The notes beneath the pieces are model-generated. The model had not been told where the DNA came from. It saw nothing but the letters and a program-made list of their open reading frames with translations, and did not search any database. From the NCBI GenBank assembly GCA_029100545.1, contig JAQXPH010000012.1:2732-66731 (forward strand): 64,000 nucleotides of DNA, given 5' to 3'. The translations under genes and the position numbers were made by a program. The stretch is from a bacterium. Lineage in GTDB: Bacteria; Bacillota_I; Bacilli_A; RF39; UBA660. Positions 2,301 through 55,140 of this stretch are shown piece by piece (the first letter of the stretch is position 1; each line of letters begins with the position of its first letter).

Positions 2301-3212
2301 TTATATTATACTAGTAATATTTACCCCTTGATAATAATATTTCAATATTTGTTCATAATTATAGCCTTTCTTTGCAAGATAATTTGCACCATATTGGCTC
2401 ATACCAACTCCATGACCATAACCATAAGTTGTTATATATATGTTATCTGATATTTCTAATATAAAATCAGTTGATCTTAAATTTAAAATTTTTCTAAATT
2501 CTGTACCCTTAAAAGTTTTATTATTAATTGTAATTTCAATAACTCTATTGCTTTTTGATCGAATTACATTATTAATTATAATGTTTTCGCAATTTATATC
2601 TAATTTTTTACAAAATTCTTGTTTAGAAAATGTTACATTTTTTTCAAAATTTCTATTTTCAATTTCATCTAATGAAGAAACACTTTTTAAATAATCTTTT
2701 TTTTCATTAAAAACTAGCATACTATCTTCTGTATAACCATTACTCATAGCAAAATAATAAGATGAAATAATCTTTCCATTATAAGTAATTAATAAATTAT
2801 CAGTTTCTTCTACTGCTTTTTTTATTTTTAAATAATATTTATCATAGTCTTCATGCCAAATTTCTTTCATTTGATTTTCAGTATACATACATTGAGTTGT
2901 TGTATCTGTAGTAATATCTTTTCCAATGCTTTCTAAATAATATGCAAAAGTTCTTGATGCAATTGCCTGTGATTTCAATGCTTCTTCTTCAAATGACGCT
3001 GGCATTTCACACGCTAGAACTCCTATTAAATAATCATTAATATTAATATTTACATTTTTACTTTTTTCATTTCGTACACTAACTATTTCTTCCTTTTTGG
3101 CATTATAAAAATAGGAAGTCTTATTATCTAAACTTCCTACTAAATAAACTACAATTAATATCAATATAAAAATTATAATATTATTTTTCATTTTTTCCTT
3201 ATATGAGTTCAA
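2301..3212 (-). CDS. spoIID: Stage II sporulation protein D (lytic transglycosylase)
   Basis: SpoIID/LytB domain: CEMPASFEEEALKSQAIASRTFAY and GYGHGVGMSQYGANYLA, with an N-terminal TM. murA-spoIID neighbourhood as in B. subtilis. Confidence 0.85.
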   Translation of the reverse strand: MNSYKEKMKNNIIIFILILIVVYLVGSLDNKTSYFYNAKKEEIVSVRNEKSKNVNININDYLIGVLACEMPASFEEEALKSQAIASRTFAYYLESIGKDITTDTTTQCMYTENQMKEIWHEDYDKYYLKIKKAVEETDNLLITYNGKIISSYYFAMSNGYTEDSMLVFNEKKDYLKSVSSLDEIENRNFEKNVTFSKQEFCKKLDINCENIIINNVIRSKSNRVIEITINNKTFKGTEFRKILNLRSTDFILEISDNIYITTYGYGHGVGMSQYGANYLAKKGYNYEQILKYYYQGVNITSII

Positions 3213-7850: not shown

Positions 7851-8360
7851 CTATTTATGATATTTATTTAATATTTCATTAATATAGAATTTGTATTCAA
7901 TATTTGATAAATCATTTTCTTTTGCGTCAATTAAACATAAAGGTGGAAAAAGTACACACCACCAGTTATCTCCATATCCATTTCCTAAAGTTATGACAAG
8001 TGATTCATAATTTCCTTTTTTATATATAACATCCTTATACTCTTTTTTTGGGAAATAATTATAACCAAAATTTATAGTATAATTAATATTCATTTTATTT
8101 AATTCATCTTCTATATTATTTATATTATTATTAATACTTTTTCTTGCATCATATATATTTGATGATTCTAACATTATATTTGTAATTATAGGTATTATTT
8201 TTGTATTTGCTTCCCATTTATTTTTTTGATCTATTAATGAATTACTATTAGCAATTATTCTATATCTAATAGATTCGTTTGGAATAGTTATTTGCTTTTC
8301 TTTATTTATTGTAATTAAGAAAAAAGTAATAACAAATAATATAATTATAAATTTTTTCAT
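7851..8360 (-). CDS. spoIIR: Stage II sporulation protein R
   Basis: Signal/TM segment, IRYRIIANSNS (LRxHVxANSDS-like) and GDNWWCVLFPPLC signatures. Adjacent to prmC-prfA as in B. subtilis. Confidence 0.8.
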   Translation of the reverse strand: MKKFIIILFVITFFLITINKEKQITIPNESIRYRIIANSNSLIDQKNKWEANTKIIPIITNIMLESSNIYDARKSINNNINNIEDELNKMNINYTINFGYNYFPKKEYKDVIYKKGNYESLVITLGNGYGDNWWCVLFPPLCLIDAKENDLSNIEYKFYINEILNKYHK

Positions 8361-12380: not shown

Positions 12381-14333
12381 GTGAAAAAATTGCATATATT
12401 GAATAAAATTTATAAGATTATTTTGTTTACTTTTTTGTCTATAATAATTATTATTATAGGTTTATATTCATATGCTTATTTTTCTAAACCTATAATTTTA
12501 AATTCTTACCATACATATGAGTTATATGATAAAAATAATAATATATTTTATGAAGGTACAAATCAAAATAAATGGAGTAAAATTGATAATATTTCTAATA
12601 ATCTAAAAAATGCAGTTATTTCAGTAGAAGATAAAAATTTTTATGAACATGGTGGATTTGATTATTTAAGAATATTAAAAGCATTTATAAAAAATATAAA
12701 AAACAGAAAAATTGTTGAAGGTGGTAGTACAATTTCACAACAATATATAAAAAATGCTTTTTTAGATTTTGATAAAACTTGGTCTAGAAAAATTAAGGAA
12801 GCAATAATGACATTAAATTTAGAAGTGCATTATTCGAAAGATGAGATACTCGAAGCATATTTAAATACAATTAATTATGGATTAGGAAACTATGGTATAG
12901 TTAGTGCTGCATCTTTTTATTTTAATAAAAATGTATCCGATTTAACTCTTGAAGAATCATTAATAATAGCTGGTATACCAAAAAATCCAAGTAATTATAA
13001 TCCAGTATCAAATTATGAAAGGAGTATACAAAGAGCTAAAGTAGTTGCTTTATCAATGCTTAATAATGGTTATTTAACAAAAAATGAATATGATAATTTA
13101 TTTAAAAATAAAATTGAAATTTATGGAAAAAAAAATAATAATAATTTACAAATGATATCTTATTTTGAAGATGCTGTATACCACGAATTAAAAAATAATT
13201 TAGGGTTTAGTGAAGAAACAATTAACTATGGAAATTTAAAAATATATACTTCTTTAGATATGAATGCGCAAAAAATACTTGAAGATGAAATTCTTAATAA
13301 TATATCGGATGAAAATTTACAAGTAGCATCAATTATAGTTTCTCCAGAAACAGGAGAAGTTTTAGCTTTAACTGGTGGGATAAATTATAATAAAAGCGAA
13401 TATAATAGAGCAATAAAATCAAAAAGACAAGTTGGTTCTACAATGAAACCATTTTTATATTATGGCGCCTTAGATAGTGGTATGACATCTTCATCAACAT
13501 TCTTAAGTCAATATACTACCTTTTCTCTTTCAAATGGCAAAACTTATTCTCCAAAAAACTTTGCAAATATATATGCAAATAAAGAAATTACAATGGCTGC
13601 AGCAATTGCCTATTCAGATAACATATATGCTGTTAAAACAAATCTTTTTTTAGGAGTAGATAAATTAATTGAAACAGCTAAATTATGTGGAATTAAAGGT
13701 AATCTTTCTAACGTAACATCACTTGCTCTTGGTACTAGCGAATTAAATATACTAGATTTTGCAAATGGTTATAATACTTTTGCTACCGGTGGCTATAAAA
13801 AAAATATATATTTTATAAATAAAATTGAAGATAAAAATGGAAATATAATATATGAACATCAAAACGAAAATAATTTAGTACTTAACCCAAATTATGTTTA
13901 TATATTAAACGAAATGTTAACTAGTACCACTAATTCAGCATTTATTGACTATAACACACCAACTGCATTAAATATTGCCTCAAAATTAAAGAAAAAATAT
14001 GCATTTAAAACTGGAACAACAGATACAGATTATTGGGCAGTTGGTTATAATAAAGATATATTAATGGTTATATGGACTGGTTATGATGATAATAGTAATA
14101 TTGAATTAAAAGTTGGTAATGAAGTAAAAAACGTATGGGCAAATGTTGTAACATATTTACAAAATGATGAAAATAATTCTTGGTATGATATGCCAAATAA
14201 TGTAATAGGTCTTCCATTAGATTCTATTAGTGGTAAACCAACAAATGATAGTAATCATATGACAATGTTTTATTACTTAAAAGGTAGTGAACCAGAATAT
14301 AATATTAATACATATAAAAAAGAAGATAATTAA
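12381..14333 (+). CDS. Class A penicillin-binding protein (glycosyltransferase + transpeptidase)
   Basis: GT51 motifs EDKNFYEHGG and GGSTISQQ. Transpeptidase motifs STMKP, SDN, KTGTT. N-terminal TM. AGGTGA at 12379-12384 favours a TTG start at 12390 over GTG at 12381. Confidence 0.9.
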   Translation: MKKLHILNKIYKIILFTFLSIIIIIIGLYSYAYFSKPIILNSYHTYELYDKNNNIFYEGTNQNKWSKIDNISNNLKNAVISVEDKNFYEHGGFDYLRILKAFIKNIKNRKIVEGGSTISQQYIKNAFLDFDKTWSRKIKEAIMTLNLEVHYSKDEILEAYLNTINYGLGNYGIVSAASFYFNKNVSDLTLEESLIIAGIPKNPSNYNPVSNYERSIQRAKVVALSMLNNGYLTKNEYDNLFKNKIEIYGKKNNNNLQMISYFEDAVYHELKNNLGFSEETINYGNLKIYTSLDMNAQKILEDEILNNISDENLQVASIIVSPETGEVLALTGGINYNKSEYNRAIKSKRQVGSTMKPFLYYGALDSGMTSSSTFLSQYTTFSLSNGKTYSPKNFANIYANKEITMAAAIAYSDNIYAVKTNLFLGVDKLIETAKLCGIKGNLSNVTSLALGTSELNILDFANGYNTFATGGYKKNIYFINKIEDKNGNIIYEHQNENNLVLNPNYVYILNEMLTSTTNSAFIDYNTPTALNIASKLKKKYAFKTGTTDTDYWAVGYNKDILMVIWTGYDDNSNIELKVGNEVKNVWANVVTYLQNDENNSWYDMPNNVIGLPLDSISGKPTNDSNHMTMFYYLKGSEPEYNINTYKKEDN

Positions 14334-15475
14334 TTCTTTTCAGAAATTGTTATAACATAAGTTATTTTATTGTTATCTTCTTGAATATTTTTTTGTATAA
14401 AATAAGAATTTTCTAATATATTTAAAGAATTATCAATAATATTTTTTGCTATAGAATAATCAATATTTTTTTGATGTTCTTGAATTGGTGGAAGAAAATC
14501 TAAACTATCAACTGCATTAATTGTTTTTTCTTGATTTATTGGATTATTAGTTATTGAATCTTTATTATAAAAATCAATATTATTTTCAGTAAAGGTAGTC
14601 GATTTGTTGCTTTCATTTTCATTATTTAGTGAAGACTGAAAGTCAAAATTTAAATAAGTATTATTTAATGGATTAGTATTTTCATTAATATTCATATTTG
14701 CTTGTTCATCTTCAAGATTATTAAAAAATCTATTAGTTGCCTTCTCACCTAAATTAATTGGTCCCATATTATTTTTATTTGAATTATCAATTGATTGAAT
14801 TAAAGGAATATCAATATCATGAGATTCATTTTTTAACTTATTAATATCTAAATTAAATGTTAAATCATTTGTTCCATATTCTTTTGCAATTTCTCTTTCT
14901 AGATCCTTGACATTTAATTTATTATCAATAATTTTTTTTAACCAAATTATTTGCTCATTACTTTCTTTTAATTTTAATAAACTTCTTGCATGCCTTTCAG
15001 ATATCTTATTATTTAAAAGTGCATCTTGTACTTCTTTAGGCAAAGTTAATAGTTTCAATTTATTTTGTAATACACTCTCAGGAACACCAATTTTTTGTGC
15101 AAGAGCTTGTTTATTCATAAAACCTTGACTTAATAAAGCTTGATATGATTTTGCTTCTTCAATAGGATTTAATTCTTTCCTTTGAATATTTTCACTTATT
15201 GCAACTTCTGCACTAGTTTTATCATCTATATTTGAAAGTATTGCTGGAACAGTTGTAAGTCCAGCCATCATAGCAGCACGATATCTTCTTTCACCTGAGA
15301 CTATTTCATATTTATCACCAAGTCTACGAACTACTAATGGTTGAATTATACCATGTTCTTTTATAGAGGCCGATAAATCATTTAATGAAGCATCATCAAA
15401 AACTAATCGTGGTTGAAAACGATTAGGAATAATATCTTCTATTGCAATATTAATCACACCAGAATCAAAATTCAT
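14330..15475 (-). CDS. parB: Chromosome partitioning protein ParB/Spo0J with a ~175-aa N/D/S-rich C-terminal extension
   Basis: ParB N-domain IIQPLVVRR...YEIVSGERRYRAAMMAG (CTP-binding GERRxR box) and HTH region ...ISERHARSLLKL. Start moved to ATG 15475 behind GAGAAGGGG. No parA/soj on either side. Confidence 0.8.
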   Translation of the reverse strand: MNFDSGVINIAIEDIIPNRFQPRLVFDDASLNDLSASIKEHGIIQPLVVRRLGDKYEIVSGERRYRAAMMAGLTTVPAILSNIDDKTSAEVAISENIQRKELNPIEEAKSYQALLSQGFMNKQALAQKIGVPESVLQNKLKLLTLPKEVQDALLNNKISERHARSLLKLKESNEQIIWLKKIIDNKLNVKDLEREIAKEYGTNDLTFNLDINKLKNESHDIDIPLIQSIDNSNKNNMGPINLGEKATNRFFNNLEDEQANMNINENTNPLNNTYLNFDFQSSLNNENESNKSTTFTENNIDFYNKDSITNNPINQEKTINAVDSLDFLPPIQEHQKNIDYSIAKNIIDNSLNILENSYFIQKNIQEDNNKITYVITISEKN

Positions 15476-15547
15476 ATAAGCCCCTTCTCTATTATATATA
15501 ATAATATATATTATCTTTTTTTTCAAGGAAAAAAAAGATAAAAACTA

Positions 15548-21762: not shown

Positions 21763-21849
21763 ATTAATACACTTTCTCCTTTTCTATAGCGTAAATATTA
21801 TAATATTAAAAATAATATTTAGTCAAGTAAAAAGAAACAATAAAAATAA

Positions 21850-22013
21850 TTTTCAACATTTTATCAACAAATTACCAACAATAAATTAACATATTCAACA
21901 ACCAATTAACAACAAATAAAAAGTTATCAACATTTAAATTTTGTTGAAACTGTTGATAACTTGTGATATCCTAGTAAACAAAAGAAAAAAATGTTGATAA
22001 TTTGTGTGGAAAA
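21850..22013. promoter_or_regulatory. oriC part 1: DnaA-box cluster upstream of dnaA
   Basis: Exact TTATCAACA at 21861 and 21924. Complement TGTTGATAA at 21951 and 21992. Near-variants: TTTTCAACA 21850, TTACCAACA 21872, TATTCAACA 21892, GTTTCAACA (complement) 21943, TTTTCCACA (complement) 22005. Confidence 0.75.
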
Positions 22014-23466: not shown

Positions 23467-23536
23467 TGTTGATAACTTTTTTAATTATTTTAGTAAAAAA
23501 ACTACTAAATTAATAAAAAAAAACAATTTATCAACA
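23467..23536. promoter_or_regulatory. oriC part 2: two DnaA boxes and an AT-rich tract between dnaA and dnaN
   Basis: TGTTGATAA at 23467-23475 and TTATCAACA at 23528-23536, flanking and followed by A/T-only runs (candidate unwinding element). Confidence 0.55.
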
Positions 23537-24775: not shown

Positions 24776-25219
24776 ATGGACAAATATATAATTAATATAA
24801 ATACTTTGGTTTTAATGGATAATGGAGATAATTCTACAAAAATAATAGAAAAATATATTACTTTTAATATAAATAATAATATTTACAATATTATTGACGA
24901 AAGTTGTAAATTTTATGGTAGCTCATTTAAAGGGAGATGTAAAAGTACTGAATATTTATTAGGTATAAAATTAAAAGTACCAATTATAATAAGTGAAAGC
25001 AAAAAAATAATATTTTTTCCTACTATGTCAATTCAAAATAAAAATTGTGTTTGGTTTAATTTAAATTCCGTTGATAAATATTATACTATTGACAATTTAT
25101 TTTTAAATATTTCTTTAATAAATGATTTACAAATTAAAATTAAATGTTCAAATTATACATTTAATAATCAATATTTAAAAGCAATGCGATTAAAATCAAT
25201 TTTAAAAAAGAATTTGTAA
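24776..25219 (+). CDS. ComK-family transcription factor (short, 147 aa)
   Basis: By-eye alignment to B. subtilis ComK: KIIEK, IIDESCKFYGSSFKGR (vs IVDRSCRFFGSSYAGR), KVPIII...IIFFPTMS (vs KPPIMV...IFLFPTLS), C-x-W, and F-NQ...A--L. RBS GTGGGGGA. Confidence 0.7.
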   Translation: MDKYIININTLVLMDNGDNSTKIIEKYITFNINNNIYNIIDESCKFYGSSFKGRCKSTEYLLGIKLKVPIIISESKKIIFFPTMSIQNKNCVWFNLNSVDKYYTIDNLFLNISLINDLQIKIKCSNYTFNNQYLKAMRLKSILKKNL

Positions 25220-28332: not shown

Positions 28333-30864
28333 ATGGATAATAAAGATGATATATTAGATAATATAGAGGAAATTAATAGTGAAAATGAGTGTAATTTAGT
28401 TTCCGATGATGATTTTAATGGTACTTTTCATGAAAAAGATAAATTAACAGAAAATAATATTGTTAGTGAAGTAAAAACATCATTTATAGATTATTCAATG
28501 AGTGTAATAACATCTCGTGCAATTCCCGATTTAAGAGATGGGTTAAAGCCCGTTCATCGTCGCATTTTATGGTCAATGTATGAGGAAGGTAATACACCTG
28601 ATAAACCTCATAAAAAATCCGCAACTACTGTTGGTTACGTAATGGGACATTATCATCCACATGGTGATTCATCTATATATGATGCAATGGTTCGTTTAGC
28701 ACAAGATTTTAATGAACGTTATATGTTAGTTGATGGTCATGGTAATTTTGGTAACATTGAAGGTGATGGTGCAGCTGCATATCGTTATACTGAAGCAAGA
28801 CTTTCAAAAATATCTCTAGAATTATTAAGGGATATTAATAAAAATACTGTTGATATGACTGATAATTATACTGCAACAGAAAAAGAACCTACAGTTTTAC
28901 CAAGTAGATTTCCTAATATTTTAGTAAATGGTTCAATGGGAATTGCTGTTGGTATGGCGACAAACATCCCACCTCATAATCTTGGAGAAGTAATTGATGG
29001 ATGTATAGCTTATATAGATAATCCAGATATTGATACTCTTGGATTAATGAAATTTATTAAAGGTCCAGATTTTCCAACAGGTGGAATTATTTTAGGTAAT
29101 TCTGGTATAAAAAAAGCATATGAAACTGGTAGAGGTACAATTACTATTCGTAGTAGAGCCGTTATAGAAGAGAATAATGGTCATAATGTTATTATTATTA
29201 CTGAAGTTCCTTATGGTGTTAATACTGCTGAATTAAAAGATAAAGTAGCAGAACTTGTTCATAATAAAATATTAGATGGAATATCTGATTATCATACTGA
29301 TTTAAAAGATGGAATTAAAATTACTATTACATTAAAAAGAGATGCAAATCCACAAGTTGTTTTAAATAATTTATATAAACATACAGCCTTTCAAGTATCA
29401 TATGGAATAATATTTTTAATGTTAGATGGATTAACTCCAAAAACATTATGTTTAAAAGATATTATTTCTAAATATATTGATTTCCAAAGGGAAATTATTA
29501 TTAGAAGAACTAAATTTGATTTAGAAAAAGCACAATCAAGAGTTCATATATTAAATGGTTTAAAAATAGCTTTAGATAATATTGATGAAGTTATTAAAAT
29601 AATTAAATCTTCAAAAACTGATGATATAGCAAAAAAAGAATTGAATTTAAAATTTGGGTTAGATGATATTCAATCTGATGCAATACTTGAAATGAAACTT
29701 AAAAGACTTACTGGTCTTGAAAGAGATAAGATCGAACAAGAATTAATAGAATTATTAAAATTAATTGATGAATTAAATTCAATTTTAGCAAGTAGTGCTA
29801 AAGTTGATGAAATAATAAAACAAGAGTTAATTGAAATAAAAAGCAAATATAGTGATGAAAGAAGAACTTCAATTGATATGTCTGCTATAGATTATATTGA
29901 TGATGAATCTTTAATTCCTGAAGAACAAACAATGATTGTTTTGACTAAAAAAGGATACATAAAAAGAACAAAACCTGATATTTTTAGAACACAAAATCGT
30001 GGTGGAATGGGTGTTAAAGGTATAACAACTAATGAGGAAGATTTTGTTGATCAGGCAATTAGCATTTCCACACACGATCACATATTATTTTTTAGTAACA
30101 AAGGTAAAGTATATAGAATGAAAGGTTATGAAATACCTGAATTTGCTAGAACTTCCAAGGGGTTACCTATAATTAATTTATTACAACTTGAAAAAAATGA
30201 ATATATTACTTCTATAATTTCAATTGACAAAAATACAAAAAAAGAATATTTATTTTTTGCTACAAAAATGGGCATAGTTAAAAAGACAGGTATTAATGAA
30301 TTTGAAAATATTAGAACTTCAGGTAAAATATGCATTAGTTTAAAAGATAATGATGAATTAATTGGTGTTAAACTTACTTCAGAAAATGATCTTATTCTTT
30401 TAGGATCAAGTACTGGAAAACTAGTTAAATTTAATGAAAGCGAAATAAGATCTATGGGTCGAACTGCTTCAGGTGTAAGAGGAATTAACTTAGATGGGGG
30501 AAGTTGTATTTGTCTTGAAGTAGTTAATGAAAATAATACTATTTTAGTTGTAACTGAATTAGGATATGGAAAACAAACTTTAGTTTCAGAATATAGACAA
30601 ACTAAGAGAGGAAGTAAAGGTGTTAAAGCATTAAATGTTACAGAAAAAAATGGTATGCTAGTTTCTGTTAAACTTTCTGATAATAATAAAGATTTAATTT
30701 TAATGACAAATATTGGTACAACCATTAAAATACCTATTAATCAAATTTCTAAATTAGGAAGAAATACACAAGGAACGAGATTAATTAATTTAAAAGAAAA
30801 TCAAAAAGTTTCTACAATAAGTATTGTAGATAAAAATGAAAATATTGATTTAGATGATAATTAA
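28333..30864 (+). CDS. gyrA: DNA gyrase subunit A
   Basis: DGLKPVHRRIL, catalytic Tyr in AAAYRYTEARL, GyrA-box/beta-pinwheel CTD. ~40-aa acidic N-terminal extension. Confidence 0.98.
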   Translation: MDNKDDILDNIEEINSENECNLVSDDDFNGTFHEKDKLTENNIVSEVKTSFIDYSMSVITSRAIPDLRDGLKPVHRRILWSMYEEGNTPDKPHKKSATTVGYVMGHYHPHGDSSIYDAMVRLAQDFNERYMLVDGHGNFGNIEGDGAAAYRYTEARLSKISLELLRDINKNTVDMTDNYTATEKEPTVLPSRFPNILVNGSMGIAVGMATNIPPHNLGEVIDGCIAYIDNPDIDTLGLMKFIKGPDFPTGGIILGNSGIKKAYETGRGTITIRSRAVIEENNGHNVIIITEVPYGVNTAELKDKVAELVHNKILDGISDYHTDLKDGIKITITLKRDANPQVVLNNLYKHTAFQVSYGIIFLMLDGLTPKTLCLKDIISKYIDFQREIIIRRTKFDLEKAQSRVHILNGLKIALDNIDEVIKIIKSSKTDDIAKKELNLKFGLDDIQSDAILEMKLKRLTGLERDKIEQELIELLKLIDELNSILASSAKVDEIIKQELIEIKSKYSDERRTSIDMSAIDYIDDESLIPEEQTMIVLTKKGYIKRTKPDIFRTQNRGGMGVKGITTNEEDFVDQAISISTHDHILFFSNKGKVYRMKGYEIPEFARTSKGLPIINLLQLEKNEYITSIISIDKNTKKEYLFFATKMGIVKKTGINEFENIRTSGKICISLKDNDELIGVKLTSENDLILLGSSTGKLVKFNESEIRSMGRTASGVRGINLDGGSCICLEVVNENNTILVVTELGYGKQTLVSEYRQTKRGSKGVKALNVTEKNGMLVSVKLSDNNKDLILMTNIGTTIKIPINQISKLGRNTQGTRLINLKENQKVSTISIVDKNENIDLDDN

Positions 30865-30870
30865 AGATAA

Positions 30871-30886
30871 TGTTTCACGTGAAACA
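30871..30886. promoter_or_regulatory. parS site 1 (perfect TGTTTCACGTGAAACA), within the 26-bp palindrome 30866-30891
   Basis: 16/16 match to the consensus. GATAATGTTTCACGTGAAACATTATC followed by a T-run also looks like the gyrA terminator. Confidence 0.85.
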
Positions 30887-30948
30887 TTATCTTTTTTTCT
30901 AGTAAATATCTAAAATAATTACGTATTTTATTTTTAATTTATGATGTA

Positions 30949-30964
30949 TGTTTCACGTGAAACA
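30949..30964. promoter_or_regulatory. parS site 2 (perfect)
   Basis: TGTTTCACGTGAAACA. Confidence 0.85.
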
Positions 30965-31024
30965 TTGCCATTTTTTTAGTAAATACCTAATAAAACATAT
31001 ATTTTATTTTTAATTTATGATGTA

Positions 31025-31040
31025 TATTTCATGTGAAACA
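31025..31040. promoter_or_regulatory. parS site 3 (degenerate, 14/16)
   Basis: TATTTCATGTGAAACA, with G2A and C8T relative to the neighbouring copies. Confidence 0.6.
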
Positions 31041-31102
31041 TTGCTTGTTTTTCTTTGTAAATATCTAAAAAAATATATATTTTATTTTTTATTTATGACT
31101 TA

Positions 31103-31118
31103 TGTTTCACGTGAAACA
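31103..31118. promoter_or_regulatory. parS site 4 (perfect)
   Basis: TGTTTCACGTGAAACA. Confidence 0.85.
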
Positions 31119-31181
31119 TTGTTTATTTTTTTAGTAAATATCTAAAAAATCATATATTTTATTTTTTCTAAATATGATGTA

Positions 31182-31197
31182 TGTTTCACGTGAAACA
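31182..31197. promoter_or_regulatory. parS site 5 (perfect)
   Basis: TGTTTCACGTGAAACA. Confidence 0.85.
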
Positions 31198-31265
31198 TTG
31201 AAAATTATTATTTATTATTTTAATTTACATTTTTCTTATAAATAAAATATATTTAAATTAAATTA

Positions 31266-31294
31266 TTGCAAAAAATGAATTATTTTGATATTAT
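31266..31294 (+). promoter_or_regulatory. SigA-type promoter of the SRP RNA
   Basis: TTGCAA (31266-31271), 17-nt spacer, TATTAT (31289-31294). Confidence 0.5.
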
Positions 31295-31300
31295 GTATGA

Positions 31301-31377
31301 GTGCGACAAATATATTGTAAACTGGTCAGATTTGGAAAAAAGCAGCCATATCAATCCCTATTTGTGTGCACTTTTTT
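31301..31377 (+). ncRNA. ffs: Small (4.5S-type, Alu-less) signal recognition particle RNA
   Basis: CUGGUCAGAUUUGGAAAAAAGCAGCC matches the domain IV core (GGUCAG...GGAA tetraloop...AGCAGCC). The ends pair (GUGCGACAAAUA / UAUUUGUGUGCAC) and a U-run follows. Sits next to tadA/dnaX, as scr does in B. subtilis. Confidence 0.7.
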
Positions 31378-31399
31378 AATTTAAAAGGAAAATGTAATT

Positions 31400-40516: not shown

Positions 40517-40555
40517 AAAATTTAAAATATAACACACTATTAAAGAGGTGTGTTT

Positions 40556-41044
40556 TTGAAAAGTACAGGTATTATAAGAAGAATAGATGATTTAGGTAGA
40601 ATTGTAATTCCAAAAGAAATAAGAAATCTTTTAAATATTCAAAATGATGATAATATTGAAATTTATATTGAAAATAAAAATATTATCTTATCTAAATATG
40701 ATAAGGCTATGGATTTAAAAAGTTATGCTGATAAATTAGTTGATATAATTACAGATAATTCTGATATTAGATTATTTATAACTAATAAAGAAATATTTAT
40801 TACTAAAGGTATATTAGAAAATAATAAAATAGATAATTCATTGCAAAATCTTATAATTGAACGAAAAAAATATGAAAGTAGTACTGAAGATATAATAAAT
40901 AATTTAAAAGGTTATTTTATTATTTATCCAATAATTATTGATAGTGATTTATTAGGCCTATTTATTTTTTTTAAAGAAAAAGAGTTTAATAATCAAGACA
41001 AAAATTTTGCAAATATTATCTTAAAAATTCTTGAAAATAGATAA
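40556..41044 (+). CDS. spoVT: Stage V sporulation protein T (AbrB-type swapped hairpin + GAF-like domain)
   Basis: A TTG start at 40556 behind AGAGGTG gives MKSTGIIRRIDDLGRIVIPKEIR, near-identical to SpoVT/AbrB N-termini. Follows mfd as in B. subtilis. Confidence 0.75.
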   Translation: MKSTGIIRRIDDLGRIVIPKEIRNLLNIQNDDNIEIYIENKNIILSKYDKAMDLKSYADKLVDIITDNSDIRLFITNKEIFITKGILENNKIDNSLQNLIIERKKYESSTEDIINNLKGYFIIYPIIIDSDLLGLFIFFKEKEFNNQDKNFANIILKILENR

Positions 41045-41065: not shown

Positions 41066-41262
41066 GTAAATACGTTGATGGAAAAGATTTATAGTAATAA
41101 TTATTTTTAGAAAGCATTTGATTGATGAAAAAATGTAATAATAGACTATAATGTGGGTTCCGAAGTTTTTACGGGTAATACCCTTATATATAAAGAGCAT
41201 GTTAAACATGAATTAAGGTGGTACCGCGGGTATATCTCGTCCTTTAGTTCATGTTTTTTTAT
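41066..41262 (+). promoter_or_regulatory. T-box riboswitch leader (probable Met specificity) with terminator
   Basis: Canonical T-box sequence AATTAAGGTGGTACCGCGG...CTCGTCC at 41211-41242. Terminator AACATGAA...TTCATGTTTTTTT. Stem I elements (GATGG K-turn-like, AGTA, AGAAAG) and AUG triplets in candidate specifier positions. Confidence 0.8.
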
Positions 41263-41277
41263 GAAAGGAAGAAATAT

Positions 41278-41760
41278 ATGGAAAGAAAATTTGAAAAAAT
41301 AAGTTTTAAAGAATTTGCAAAGGATATAAAAGATGATAAAGATCTTTATGATGATGTAATTTTACCTATTAGAAAAACAAGTCAAAGTGCGGGATATGAT
41401 TTTGTTGCATATGATAAAGTAATTATACATCCTGGAGAAATTGTTAAAATACCATCATCTTATAAAGTTAAATTAAATGCTAACGAAGTACTATTTATTG
41501 TGGTAAGAAGTAGTATGGGCTTTAAATATAATATTAGATTATGTAATCAAGTTGGAATAATTGATGCTGATTATTATAATAATGATACAAATGAAGGACA
41601 TATTTATATAGCACTTCAAAATGAAGGGAATAAAGATTTTGTTATTGAAAAAGGAGATGCTTATGCTCAGGGGATAATATTAAATTATTTAACCTGTGGA
41701 GATGAAAATAATAATAAACGTAGTGGGGGAATTGGAAGTACTAATACGGAGGAAATATGA
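41278..41760 (+). CDS. dut: dUTP diphosphatase (trimeric Dut)
   Basis: SAGYDF, RSSMG, GIIDADY, and C-terminal RSGGIGST. Start moved to ATG 41278 behind AAAGGAAG; the ORF-track start lies inside the T-box terminator. Confidence 0.85.
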   Translation: MERKFEKISFKEFAKDIKDDKDLYDDVILPIRKTSQSAGYDFVAYDKVIIHPGEIVKIPSSYKVKLNANEVLFIVVRSSMGFKYNIRLCNQVGIIDADYYNNDTNEGHIYIALQNEGNKDFVIEKGDAYAQGIILNYLTCGDENNNKRSGGIGSTNTEEI

Positions 41761-47448: not shown

Positions 47449-48225
47449 TTGGTGATATTATTGAATATAGAAGTTGGTGATTATGTTACAAGAAAATCAT
47501 ATAATAATGATCTTATCTTTAAAGTGCTATCAATTTCCGAAGATAAAGTATATTTAAAAGGTGTATTTGATAGATTATATGCAGATAGTGATATTTTAGA
47601 CTTAGTAAAAGTAGATAAATGTGATGATAATTTTAACGTTGATTTAGATATAAATAATGATCGTAGTAATTATTTTTATTTACCAGGTAAAATTCTTCAT
47701 ATTGATGGTGATAGTGAATATTTAGAAAAATGTTTAAAATTTTATAAAAATTTAAACATTTATGCTATAGGAAAAAAAATAAATGAAGATAATATAGCAA
47801 GTCAATTATCAATATTATTAAAAGAGTTTAAACCAGATATTCTTGTTATTACTGGTCATGATGCATATTATTCAAAGAAGGGTAATAAAGATAATATAAA
47901 TAATTATAAAAATTCCAAAAATTTTGTTAAAGCAATTAGAGTAGCAAGAAATTATGAAAAAAATCATGAAAAACTTGTAATTATTGCAGGGGCCTGTCAA
48001 AGTGATTATGAAGCACTGATTAAAGCTGGAGCAAATTTTGCATCAAGTCCCAAAAGAGTTAACATTCATGCTTTAGATCCTGCTATAATAGCAAGTACAA
48101 TTGCACTTACAAAAACATCTGAAGAAATTAATGTTATTGATTTAATTAATAAAACAAAATATGGTTCCTCAGGCATAGGTGGAATTATAACTAATGGGCT
48201 TATGTATGTGGGGTATCCAAGATGA
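47449..48225 (+). CDS. yabG: Sporulation-specific protease YabG
   Basis: VGDYVTRKSY N-terminus, LHIDGD, ILVITGHDAY, ACQS. The rsmA-yabG-veg neighbourhood is retained. A TTG start at 47458 behind GGTGAT is likely the true start. Confidence 0.75.
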   Translation: MVILLNIEVGDYVTRKSYNNDLIFKVLSISEDKVYLKGVFDRLYADSDILDLVKVDKCDDNFNVDLDINNDRSNYFYLPGKILHIDGDSEYLEKCLKFYKNLNIYAIGKKINEDNIASQLSILLKEFKPDILVITGHDAYYSKKGNKDNINNYKNSKNFVKAIRVARNYEKNHEKLVIIAGACQSDYEALIKAGANFASSPKRVNIHALDPAIIASTIALTKTSEEINVIDLINKTKYGSSGIGGIITNGLMYVGYPR

Positions 48226-54387: not shown

Positions 54388-55140
54388 ATGAATACTAGCA
54401 TCAGAGCTATAGTAGTAGATGACAATACTGTGGCAGTAAACAACTTAAGAAAATATTTTAATCAAAATGATCGAATAAAGATTGTCGCATCTTTTTCTAA
54501 TGGAGAAGAAGCATTAGAATATTTGATTAACAATAATGGCGAAATTGATTTAGTAATATTGGAATTGCTAATCCCAAGACTTGACGGAGCTACTTTACTC
54601 GAGGAAATAAAAAGTAGAAAATTGACTCCAAAAATTATAGTTACATCTGGATATAAAGATAATAATATAATTAACGACTGTGCATTCTACAATGTATGTT
54701 ATTATTTAATAAAACCATTTAGTATATTATCTTTAGAAAAAAGAATTAATGAAGTATTTGAATCCAAAAATTTATCTTTTAGCAAAAATAATAGTTTAGA
54801 TCTTGAAATAAGTCAATTACTTCATAATTTGGGTATTCCGTCACATATAAGAGGATATAAATATATTAGGGATGGTATTTTAATAATTTATAATAACGAA
54901 TCGGTTTCACTTGTTACTAAAGAAATATATCCACAAATTGCATTAAAATACGAAACTACGCCATCAAGAGTCGAAAGGGCAATAAGGCATGCAATTGAAG
55001 TTAGTTGGATCAGGGGGGACATTAATTTAATGGAAGATTTATTCGGATTTAGTGTCAGCTGTGAAAAATCTAAACCAACTAATTCTGAGTTTTTAACTAC
55101 AATTGCAGATCGTATTAAACTAGACAGTAAAGCTTTTTAG
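54388..55140 (+). CDS. spo0A: Sporulation master regulator Spo0A (atypical receiver: Glu at the phospho-acceptor position)
   Basis: Receiver domain plus a Spo0A-specific C-terminal domain (GIPSHIRGYKYIRDGI, SRVERAIRHAIEVSWIRG, KPTNSEF). Codon 59 is GAA (LVILELLIPRLDG vs B. subtilis LVLDIIMPHLDG). Confidence 0.95.
   Translation: MNTSIRAIVVDDNTVAVNNLRKYFNQNDRIKIVASFSNGEEALEYLINNNGEIDLVILELLIPRLDGATLLEEIKSRKLTPKIIVTSGYKDNNIINDCAFYNVCYYLIKPFSILSLEKRINEVFESKNLSFSKNNSLDLEISQLLHNLGIPSHIRGYKYIRDGILIIYNNESVSLVTKEIYPQIALKYETTPSRVERAIRHAIEVSWIRGDINLMEDLFGFSVSCEKSKPTNSEFLTTIADRIKLDSKAF

Follow-up and report, generated by a model that had tools for sequence, protein, structure and literature searches.

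The window analysed here, a 64-kb stretch of bacterial DNA with 24% G+C that uses the standard genetic code, carries a classical Firmicute origin block. On its plus strand, the order is dnaA, dnaN, an ORF of the ComK family, recF, gyrB, gyrA, a tandem array of parS sites, the small SRP RNA gene, tadA, dnaX, ybaB and recR; rsmG, mnmG, mnmE, jag, yidC and rnpA are encoded on the minus strand of the block. The GC skew has its minimum and changes sign at about 22 kb, near the DnaA-box clusters. The array begins 2 bp past the gyrA stop codon, ends 93 bp short of the SRP RNA gene, occupies most of the 535-bp intergenic spacer between gyrA and tadA and lies 8.8 kb from dnaA (start 22096) and oriC, in agreement with an earlier, sequence-only reading of this DNA that had placed it 3' of gyrA and about 9 kb from dnaA. 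The features to which we refer are as follows.

14330–15478, minus strand: the only ParB-family gene in the window, a Noc-type CTPase with a GERRYRA box, next to rsmG, with E-K-T-R at the specificity positions
21850–22013, no strand: cluster of DnaA boxes of the TTATCAACA type upstream of dnaA, part of oriC
23467–23536 (box positions): second, small DnaA-box cluster
28333–30864, plus strand: gyrA (Pfam DNA_topoisoIV and DNA_gyraseA_C), the 3' end and terminator of which abut the array
30870–31200, no strand: tandem array, about 4.3 copies of a unit of about 78 bp that consists of one parS and an AT-rich spacer of 60–63 bp
30871–30886, no strand: parS-1, perfect TGTTTCACGTGAAACA, in the stem of the gyrA terminator-like hairpin
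30949–30964, no strand: parS-2, perfect, from the motif search
31025–31040, no strand: parS-3, degenerate TATTTCATGTGAAACA, with two mismatches, left half-site
31103–31118, no strand: parS-4, perfect, from the motif search
31182–31197, no strand: parS-5, perfect, the last copy; unique DNA and the promoter region of the SRP RNA come next
31291–31384, plus strand: small SRP RNA gene (ffs/scr; Rfam RF00169, 52.3 bits), the downstream boundary of the spacer

The gene content also says something about the organism. Genes for Spo0A (54388–55140), SpoIIR (7851–8360), SpoIID (2301–3212), YabG (47449–48225) and a SpoVT/AbrB-like protein (40550–41044) are present in the window, as is one for a class A penicillin-binding protein. 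Spo0A, SpoIIR, SpoIID and YabG, together with the penicillin-binding protein, indicate a walled, spore-former-like member of the Bacilli, and the organism looks like an endospore former. The relatives discussed below carry the label 'Bacilli bacterium' and derive from gut metagenomes of pigs and humans.

Compared with the 16-bp palindromic parS consensus TGTTNCACGTGAAACA, the array contains four perfect copies and one with two mismatches. Exact matching across the 64-kb window finds the perfect 16-mer at 30871, 30949, 31103 and 31182, and the five sites start 78/76/78/79 bp apart, so that the number, positions and spacing given in the sequence-only reading were all reproduced. Its assignment of the sites to the canonical chromosomal parS also stands: with up to three mismatches allowed, seven parS-like matches occur in the window, against 0.38 expected from dinucleotide-preserving shuffles (n = 100), and none of the 100 shuffles reaches seven. 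Two of these matches lie beyond the array (2090 and 57688) with three mismatches each, which is the chance level, and therefore the search at up to three mismatches reveals no further parS in the 64 kb, as had been stated. The repeated entity is the whole unit of about 78 bp, again as proposed. Tandem Repeats Finder returned a period of 78 with 4.3 copies and 83% matches over 30870–31200, a second repeat-search method gave the same 76/78/79 register, and the inter-site spacers within the array are 81–84% identical to one another. Within 30887–31181, and likewise in the units of five related loci (L126, L133, L134, L137 and L021), each parS is followed by TTG, by a T-run about 8–14 nt downstream and by a loosely conserved CTAAnnTAT..AAAA stretch; this pattern may be the legacy of a founder terminator unit or may reflect a second constraint. 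Promoters inside the units were considered and rejected, the sigma-70-like matches being at chance (19 versus 15.7 expected).

The first site differs from the others in its setting. A hairpin at 30863–30894, directly after the gyrA stop codon, comprises 14 pairs followed by TTTTTTT (−15.2 kcal/mol, z = −5.0) and is the only terminator-like match in the region. Copy 1 thus combines the features of an intrinsic terminator (a GC-containing hairpin, an abutting T-run and a location at the 3' end of a gene), and copies 2–5 do not. By eye, an extended palindrome with a T-run also occurs at the first site right after the gyrA stop codon in L126, L133, L134 and L137. It could be argued that the repeat is mainly a transcription terminator or a structural AT-rich repeat, the palindromes being kept as RNA hairpins and not as protein-binding sites; the strong terminator-like hairpin of copy 1 would fit this, as would the T-run that lies a few bases downstream of most copies both in the window and in relatives. 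Nevertheless, the folding of copies 2–5 is weak (z = −0.45 to −1.68), and in none of them does the T-run directly adjoin the stem. A hairpin would moreover allow compensatory changes, yet the exact parS is invariant across species, and clusters of the same 16-mer adjoin parB, rsmG and mnmG in unrelated phyla. We therefore regard a mainly terminator or structural role as very improbable.

To place the array among its relatives, the gyrA–SRP RNA spacers were retrieved via the GyrA proteins. Contig-end breaks aside, this spacer carries three to five perfect parS sites in every relative examined (GyrA 85–99%). Among seven contigs of the same species (GyrA 99%), six hold three perfect parS each, spaced at 77/72 bp, and the remaining one, L132, is cut off after two sites. 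In L142 (GyrA 98%), which belongs to the same species and was assembled independently from pig gut, five sites at 77/79/78/72 bp all match parS perfectly, whereas parS-3 of the window is degenerate; in L141 (same species, GyrA 99%) the contig breaks inside the array. Farther away, three sites at 78/56 bp are found at GyrA 95%, three at 162/169 bp in a repeated unit of about 165 bp at GyrA 92%, three at 90/102 bp in L021 (GyrA 86%) and five at 175/167/139/170 bp at GyrA 85%. The copy number is thus polymorphic within the species, three versus five in independent assemblies. Because L142 was assembled independently with five parS, the array is not an assembly artefact of a single site, an outcome against which the sequence-only reading had cautioned. 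The three- and five-copy alleles (L126–L131 and L142, respectively) coexist in pig-gut metagenomes; given this coexistence and the contig break in L141, short-read assemblies may under-report the copy number. A search of JGI metagenomes for the exact first unit, made to find more alleles of the same species, gave no matches. The three-versus-five polymorphism in one species offers a natural dosage series for any effect of parS number in vivo.

What is conserved in these spacers is the site. Across six loci (GyrA 85–100%), 20 of the 22 sites are perfect parS, to which L142 adds five of five. Spacer identity between species falls to 45–71%, and the site spacing ranges from 56 to 175 bp; since spacer length and sequence drift while parS stays, selection acts on the 16-mer itself. 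Helical phasing of the sites was rejected for the same reason, the spacing not being conserved between relatives (56–175 bp), which fits independently acting sites and speaks against a higher-order structure that depends on phasing. At greater distance (GyrA 61–71%), low-GC Bacilli and Mycoplasmatota have between one and ten parS around gyrA, ffs and tadA, with perfect tandem amplifications in L040 (4 × 44 bp), L048 (3 × 42 bp) and L113 (5 × 63 bp). The tandem arrays 3' of gyrA in L040, L048, L113, L137 and L142, all MAGs of uncultured low-GC Bacilli or Mycoplasmatota, lie in the orthologous gyrA–ffs–tadA position, share the consensus, comprise 3–10 copies and show unit amplification, but the unit differs among the gyrA-linked arrays in sequence and in length (42, 44, 63, about 78 and about 165–175 bp). 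These amplifications have therefore recurred in separate lineages and do not go back to a single inherited repeat. The gyrA–ffs spacer is therefore a lineage-conserved centromere position at which copy number and spacing change via recurrent unit duplication and loss, that is, a clade-wide hot spot of repeated parS unit amplification and contraction. The array of the window arose, and keeps changing, via tandem duplication and deletion, and its founder unit is the gyrA terminator hairpin containing parS.

Closely iterated sites had been taken in the sequence-only reading as typical of plasmid and phage partition loci and not of chromosomes, a premise that does not survive comparison with other genomes. 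B. subtilis has origin-proximal parS sites, P. aeruginosa has parS1–4 and S. pneumoniae has four sites. Among published clusters, M. xanthus carries 22 parS within 3 kb (PMC3899335) and C. glutamicum ten within 35 kb (PMC7083940). In a scan for two parS 45–75 nt apart that took one genome from each of 185,579 species, we obtained at least 120 loci; those listed include Actinomycetota, Acidobacteriota, Bacteroidota, Pseudomonadota, Planctomycetota, Patescibacteria and many Bacillota, and most of them adjoin chromosomal origin genes (parB, rsmG, mnmG/E or gyrA/B). When a run is defined by a start-to-start spacing of at most 120 bp, 61 of the 120 loci listed have at least three sites, 13 at least four and seven at least five. 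True unit amplification, with spacers at least 70% identical, is seen in six of the 61 runs of three or more sites among these loci (about 10%). A regular array of five copies lies near the top of a range that is common on chromosomes.

This bears directly on whether the array could be a centromere acquired from a plasmid or phage, or a dispersed REP/MITE-like element, that inserted beside gyrA. Centromeres such as sopC of the F plasmid and the type Ib/II iteron centromeres consist of a head-to-tail iterated unit carrying one binding site, and the direct tandem repeats described here, each with its own site, resemble them. The same trait is seen at many chromosomal loci, however, and so does not discriminate for plasmids. 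Unlike the plasmid and phage arrays, the present one is chromosomal, is built from the universal chromosomal parS and has no partition operon next to it. Neither parAB nor any mobile-element gene is adjacent, core-gene synteny is retained on both sides, no deviant Walker A motif of a ParA was found in any of the six frames of the window, and the array has no DNA match in plasmid or phage collections. As for a dispersed element, spacer matches with E < 1e-4 in the 64-kb window fall solely inside the array, so that the unit is not dispersed within this stretch, and in relatives it is confined to the same intergenic spacer; the scattered REP/MITE-like copies that the sequence-only reading had named as a reason to abandon its view were not seen. 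The locus is, in addition, orthologously conserved across the clade. A mobile partition centromere and, on the strength of the 64 kb and the relatives, a dispersed repeat were both rejected, and we give an origin of this kind almost no credence.

Set beside the chromosomal ParABS/SMC clusters of B. subtilis, C. glutamicum, M. xanthus, P. aeruginosa and S. pneumoniae, the array has the identical 16-bp consensus, is origin-proximal and comprises several redundant intergenic sites, here in a conserved Firmicute origin gene block. Nevertheless, there are differences. The first is the regular head-to-tail amplification of a unit of about 78 bp within one 535-bp intergenic spacer. Another is the position of the first site, which is also the stem of the gyrA terminator. 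Furthermore, no ParB, ParA or SMC gene is in view within the 64 kb. As a parS cluster the locus adds little that is new, dense origin-proximal runs being common on chromosomes; it does have a tidy tandem architecture and a dual-use first site.

The ParB-family gene of the window had been read as a canonical parB, an assignment that has to be revised to a Noc-type gene. It encodes 381 residues, with 16 residues before the PNxxQPR motif, a segment into which a Noc-like N-terminal membrane-targeting helix presumably would not fit, and an N/D/S-rich tail of about 165 residues. By structure-linked similarity, the protein is closest to Noc (PDB 7NG0, 195 bits; 7OL9, 170 bits), ahead of Spo0J (6SDK, 156 bits; 1VZ0, 164 bits); on the NCBIfam Noc model TIGR04285 it scores 248 bits, where the cut-off is 315 bits. 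The specificity of the two proteins has been assigned to four positions, 173, 179, 184 and 201 in Caulobacter ParB numbering, which read R-T-A-G in ParB and Q-K-K-R in Noc (PMC7383237). Extant ParB orthologues conserve both R173 and G201, and in a deep mutational scan of Caulobacter ParB every parS-specific variant carried R173; on this scaffold, parS-specific variants have a small residue at position 201, whereas R201 favours the cytosine of the Noc-binding site (NBS) (PMC7383237). The window protein has E173, K179, T184 and R201 in place of the canonical R173/G201 pair and is without further conserved DNA-contact residues (K171V, S172P and Q162K). No fitness values for EKTR, QKTR, VKTR, LKTR, QKNR or QKSR were found in two supplementary files of Jalal et al. 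(2020).

The protein belongs to a very large Noc-like family with the consensus Q-K-N-R, in which about 16 residues precede PNxxQPR and the C-terminal tails are long and variable. Q173 is present in 142 of 150 representatives at 50% identity, K179 in 145 and R201 in 147, a Noc-type signature; in the subclade of the window, position 173 has drifted from the family Q to E, V or L. As a control, we examined the ParB genes beside tandem parS in the scanned genomes, of which 45/46 encode R173 with G or S at position 201 (43 R..G and two R..S). The exception, in L018, is a Q-K-N-R paralogue that adjoins a canonical ParB and holds the same rsmG-adjacent position as the window gene, which is that of noc in B. 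subtilis. Synteny of rsmG, the noc-like gene, a penicillin-binding protein gene and argS, without soj-spo0J, is conserved in the relatives examined, and this uncharacterised family, with its short N-terminus and long tails, replaces noc-soj-spo0J beside rsmG in these genomes.

Likeness to the Noc/NBS system is thus found in the rsmG-adjacent location, in the similarity to Noc (PDB 7NG0/7NFU) and in K179 and R201. The array, in contrast, consists of parS (G1/A6) and not of NBS (A1/C6), and the protein departs from Noc in having E173 and not Q, T184, a short N-terminal segment and a long low-complexity tail. Since 45/46 array-linked ParBs combine R173 with G/S201 and the window protein combines E with R, we conclude that the gene is a Noc-type paralogue and probably not the parS binder. 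It follows that the argument from a parB without an adjacent ParA fails, and the related points, that no parS lies inside parB and that the array compensates for a reduced partition system, rest on the same misassigned gene. Firmicutes that partition with ParB alone are known anyway, S. pneumoniae being without parA (PMC7022226).

Neither a canonical ParB (R173/G201) nor ParA or SMC genes are visible in the 64-kb window, and the canonical ParB of the clade was not found in the related contigs examined. The soj-spo0J locus of L073, at 25.5% GC the only very low-GC parS locus, was followed as a lead to it and discarded, L073 belonging to the Lachnospirales (Tyzzerella / C. colinum). As the window gene is Noc-type and the 64 kb hold no canonical ParB, we infer that the binder is encoded outside the window.

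The NBS themselves were also sought. The core ATTTCCCGGGAAAT has no match at up to two mismatches in the 64 kb. Among more distant relatives in the low-GC Bacilli and Mycoplasmatota, parS arrays 3' of gyrA have perfect or near-perfect NBS of the form TATTTCCCGGGAAATA right beside them: L001, 2987–3166; L090, 3570, 3660 and 7248; L058, 1453; L100, 3692; L024, 5229; and L113, 85. Five of them in L001 are about 30 bp apart, the last one lying between two parS sites. We know of no description of origin-proximal NBS arrays for B. subtilis Noc. The Noc-like family co-occurs with NBS arrays beside parS arrays in some relatives, and because perfect NBS and perfect parS occur together in distant relatives, two separate binders with their own specificities are indicated in the wider clade.

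A different assignment of the binder would be that the lineage has lost soj-spo0J and that its sole ParB-family CTPase, the Noc-lineage E-K-T-R protein beside rsmG, itself loads at the conserved parS array, recognizing it without R173. It is the only gene of its family in the window and, by Pfam annotation, in the origin regions of relatives that were read; it retains the CTP-binding GERRYRA box; soj-spo0J is missing from its usual place after noc; NBS are absent from the 64 kb; and residue 173 has drifted from Q to E, V or L in the subclade, the sort of drift that a relaxed reading of NBS would leave. Against this stand the parS-specific Caulobacter ParB variants, all with R173 and a small residue 201, the preference of R201 for the NBS cytosine (PMC7383237), and the loss of the other DNA-contact residues noted above. 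Residue 173 also varies among E, Q, V and L where parS is invariant, unlike a base-reading residue, the distant relatives with both kinds of site imply two binders, and L018 carries its QKNR paralogue alongside a canonical ParB. We consider such a takeover unlikely. If true, the switch in specificity from ParB to Noc would have been reversed in nature, without the R173 that is supposedly indispensable, and the amplified array might offset weaker site recognition.

Overall, it is likely that the array is an origin-proximal chromosomal centromere, a parS cluster of spore-former-like gut Bacilli with about 24% GC, served by a canonical ParB encoded outside the window. A multi-site ParB loading pad, as the sequence-only reading had suggested, is the most reasonable predicted function. 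Each 16-bp palindrome would be an independent entry site at which a dimer of the canonical ParB/Spo0J, presumably encoded beyond the 64 kb, binds, closes as a CTP-bound clamp and slides off, and having five of them within 330 bp would speed up ParB loading and make the partition complex robust. Partition complexes typically extend over 10–30 kb in model species; the one formed here would reach across oriC, which is 8.8 kb distant, and could act as a zone of SMC loading. Origin-proximal runs of parS are established as redundant ParB loading sites in several model species. A single parS suffices in several model species. ParB loading and condensation force scale with parS number in vitro (PMC8299390), and the clustered parS of C. 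glutamicum are redundant and thought to add robustness (PMC7083940). Since three-copy alleles exist, five copies are not required, and any benefit of having five is putative.

Some minor features of the window were also recorded. Upstream of dnaA, at 21848–21917, DnaA-box-like TTATCAACA motifs recur with an 11-bp period as 6.3 copies of AATTATCAACA. The ComK-family ORF (24776–25219, plus strand; 147 residues) lies between dnaN and recF, a position that is kept in relatives. A T-box leader at 41066–41247 (Rfam RF00230, barely above the gathering score) precedes an ORF of the dUTPase family (41251–41760), which is followed by the gene for methionyl-tRNA synthetase.
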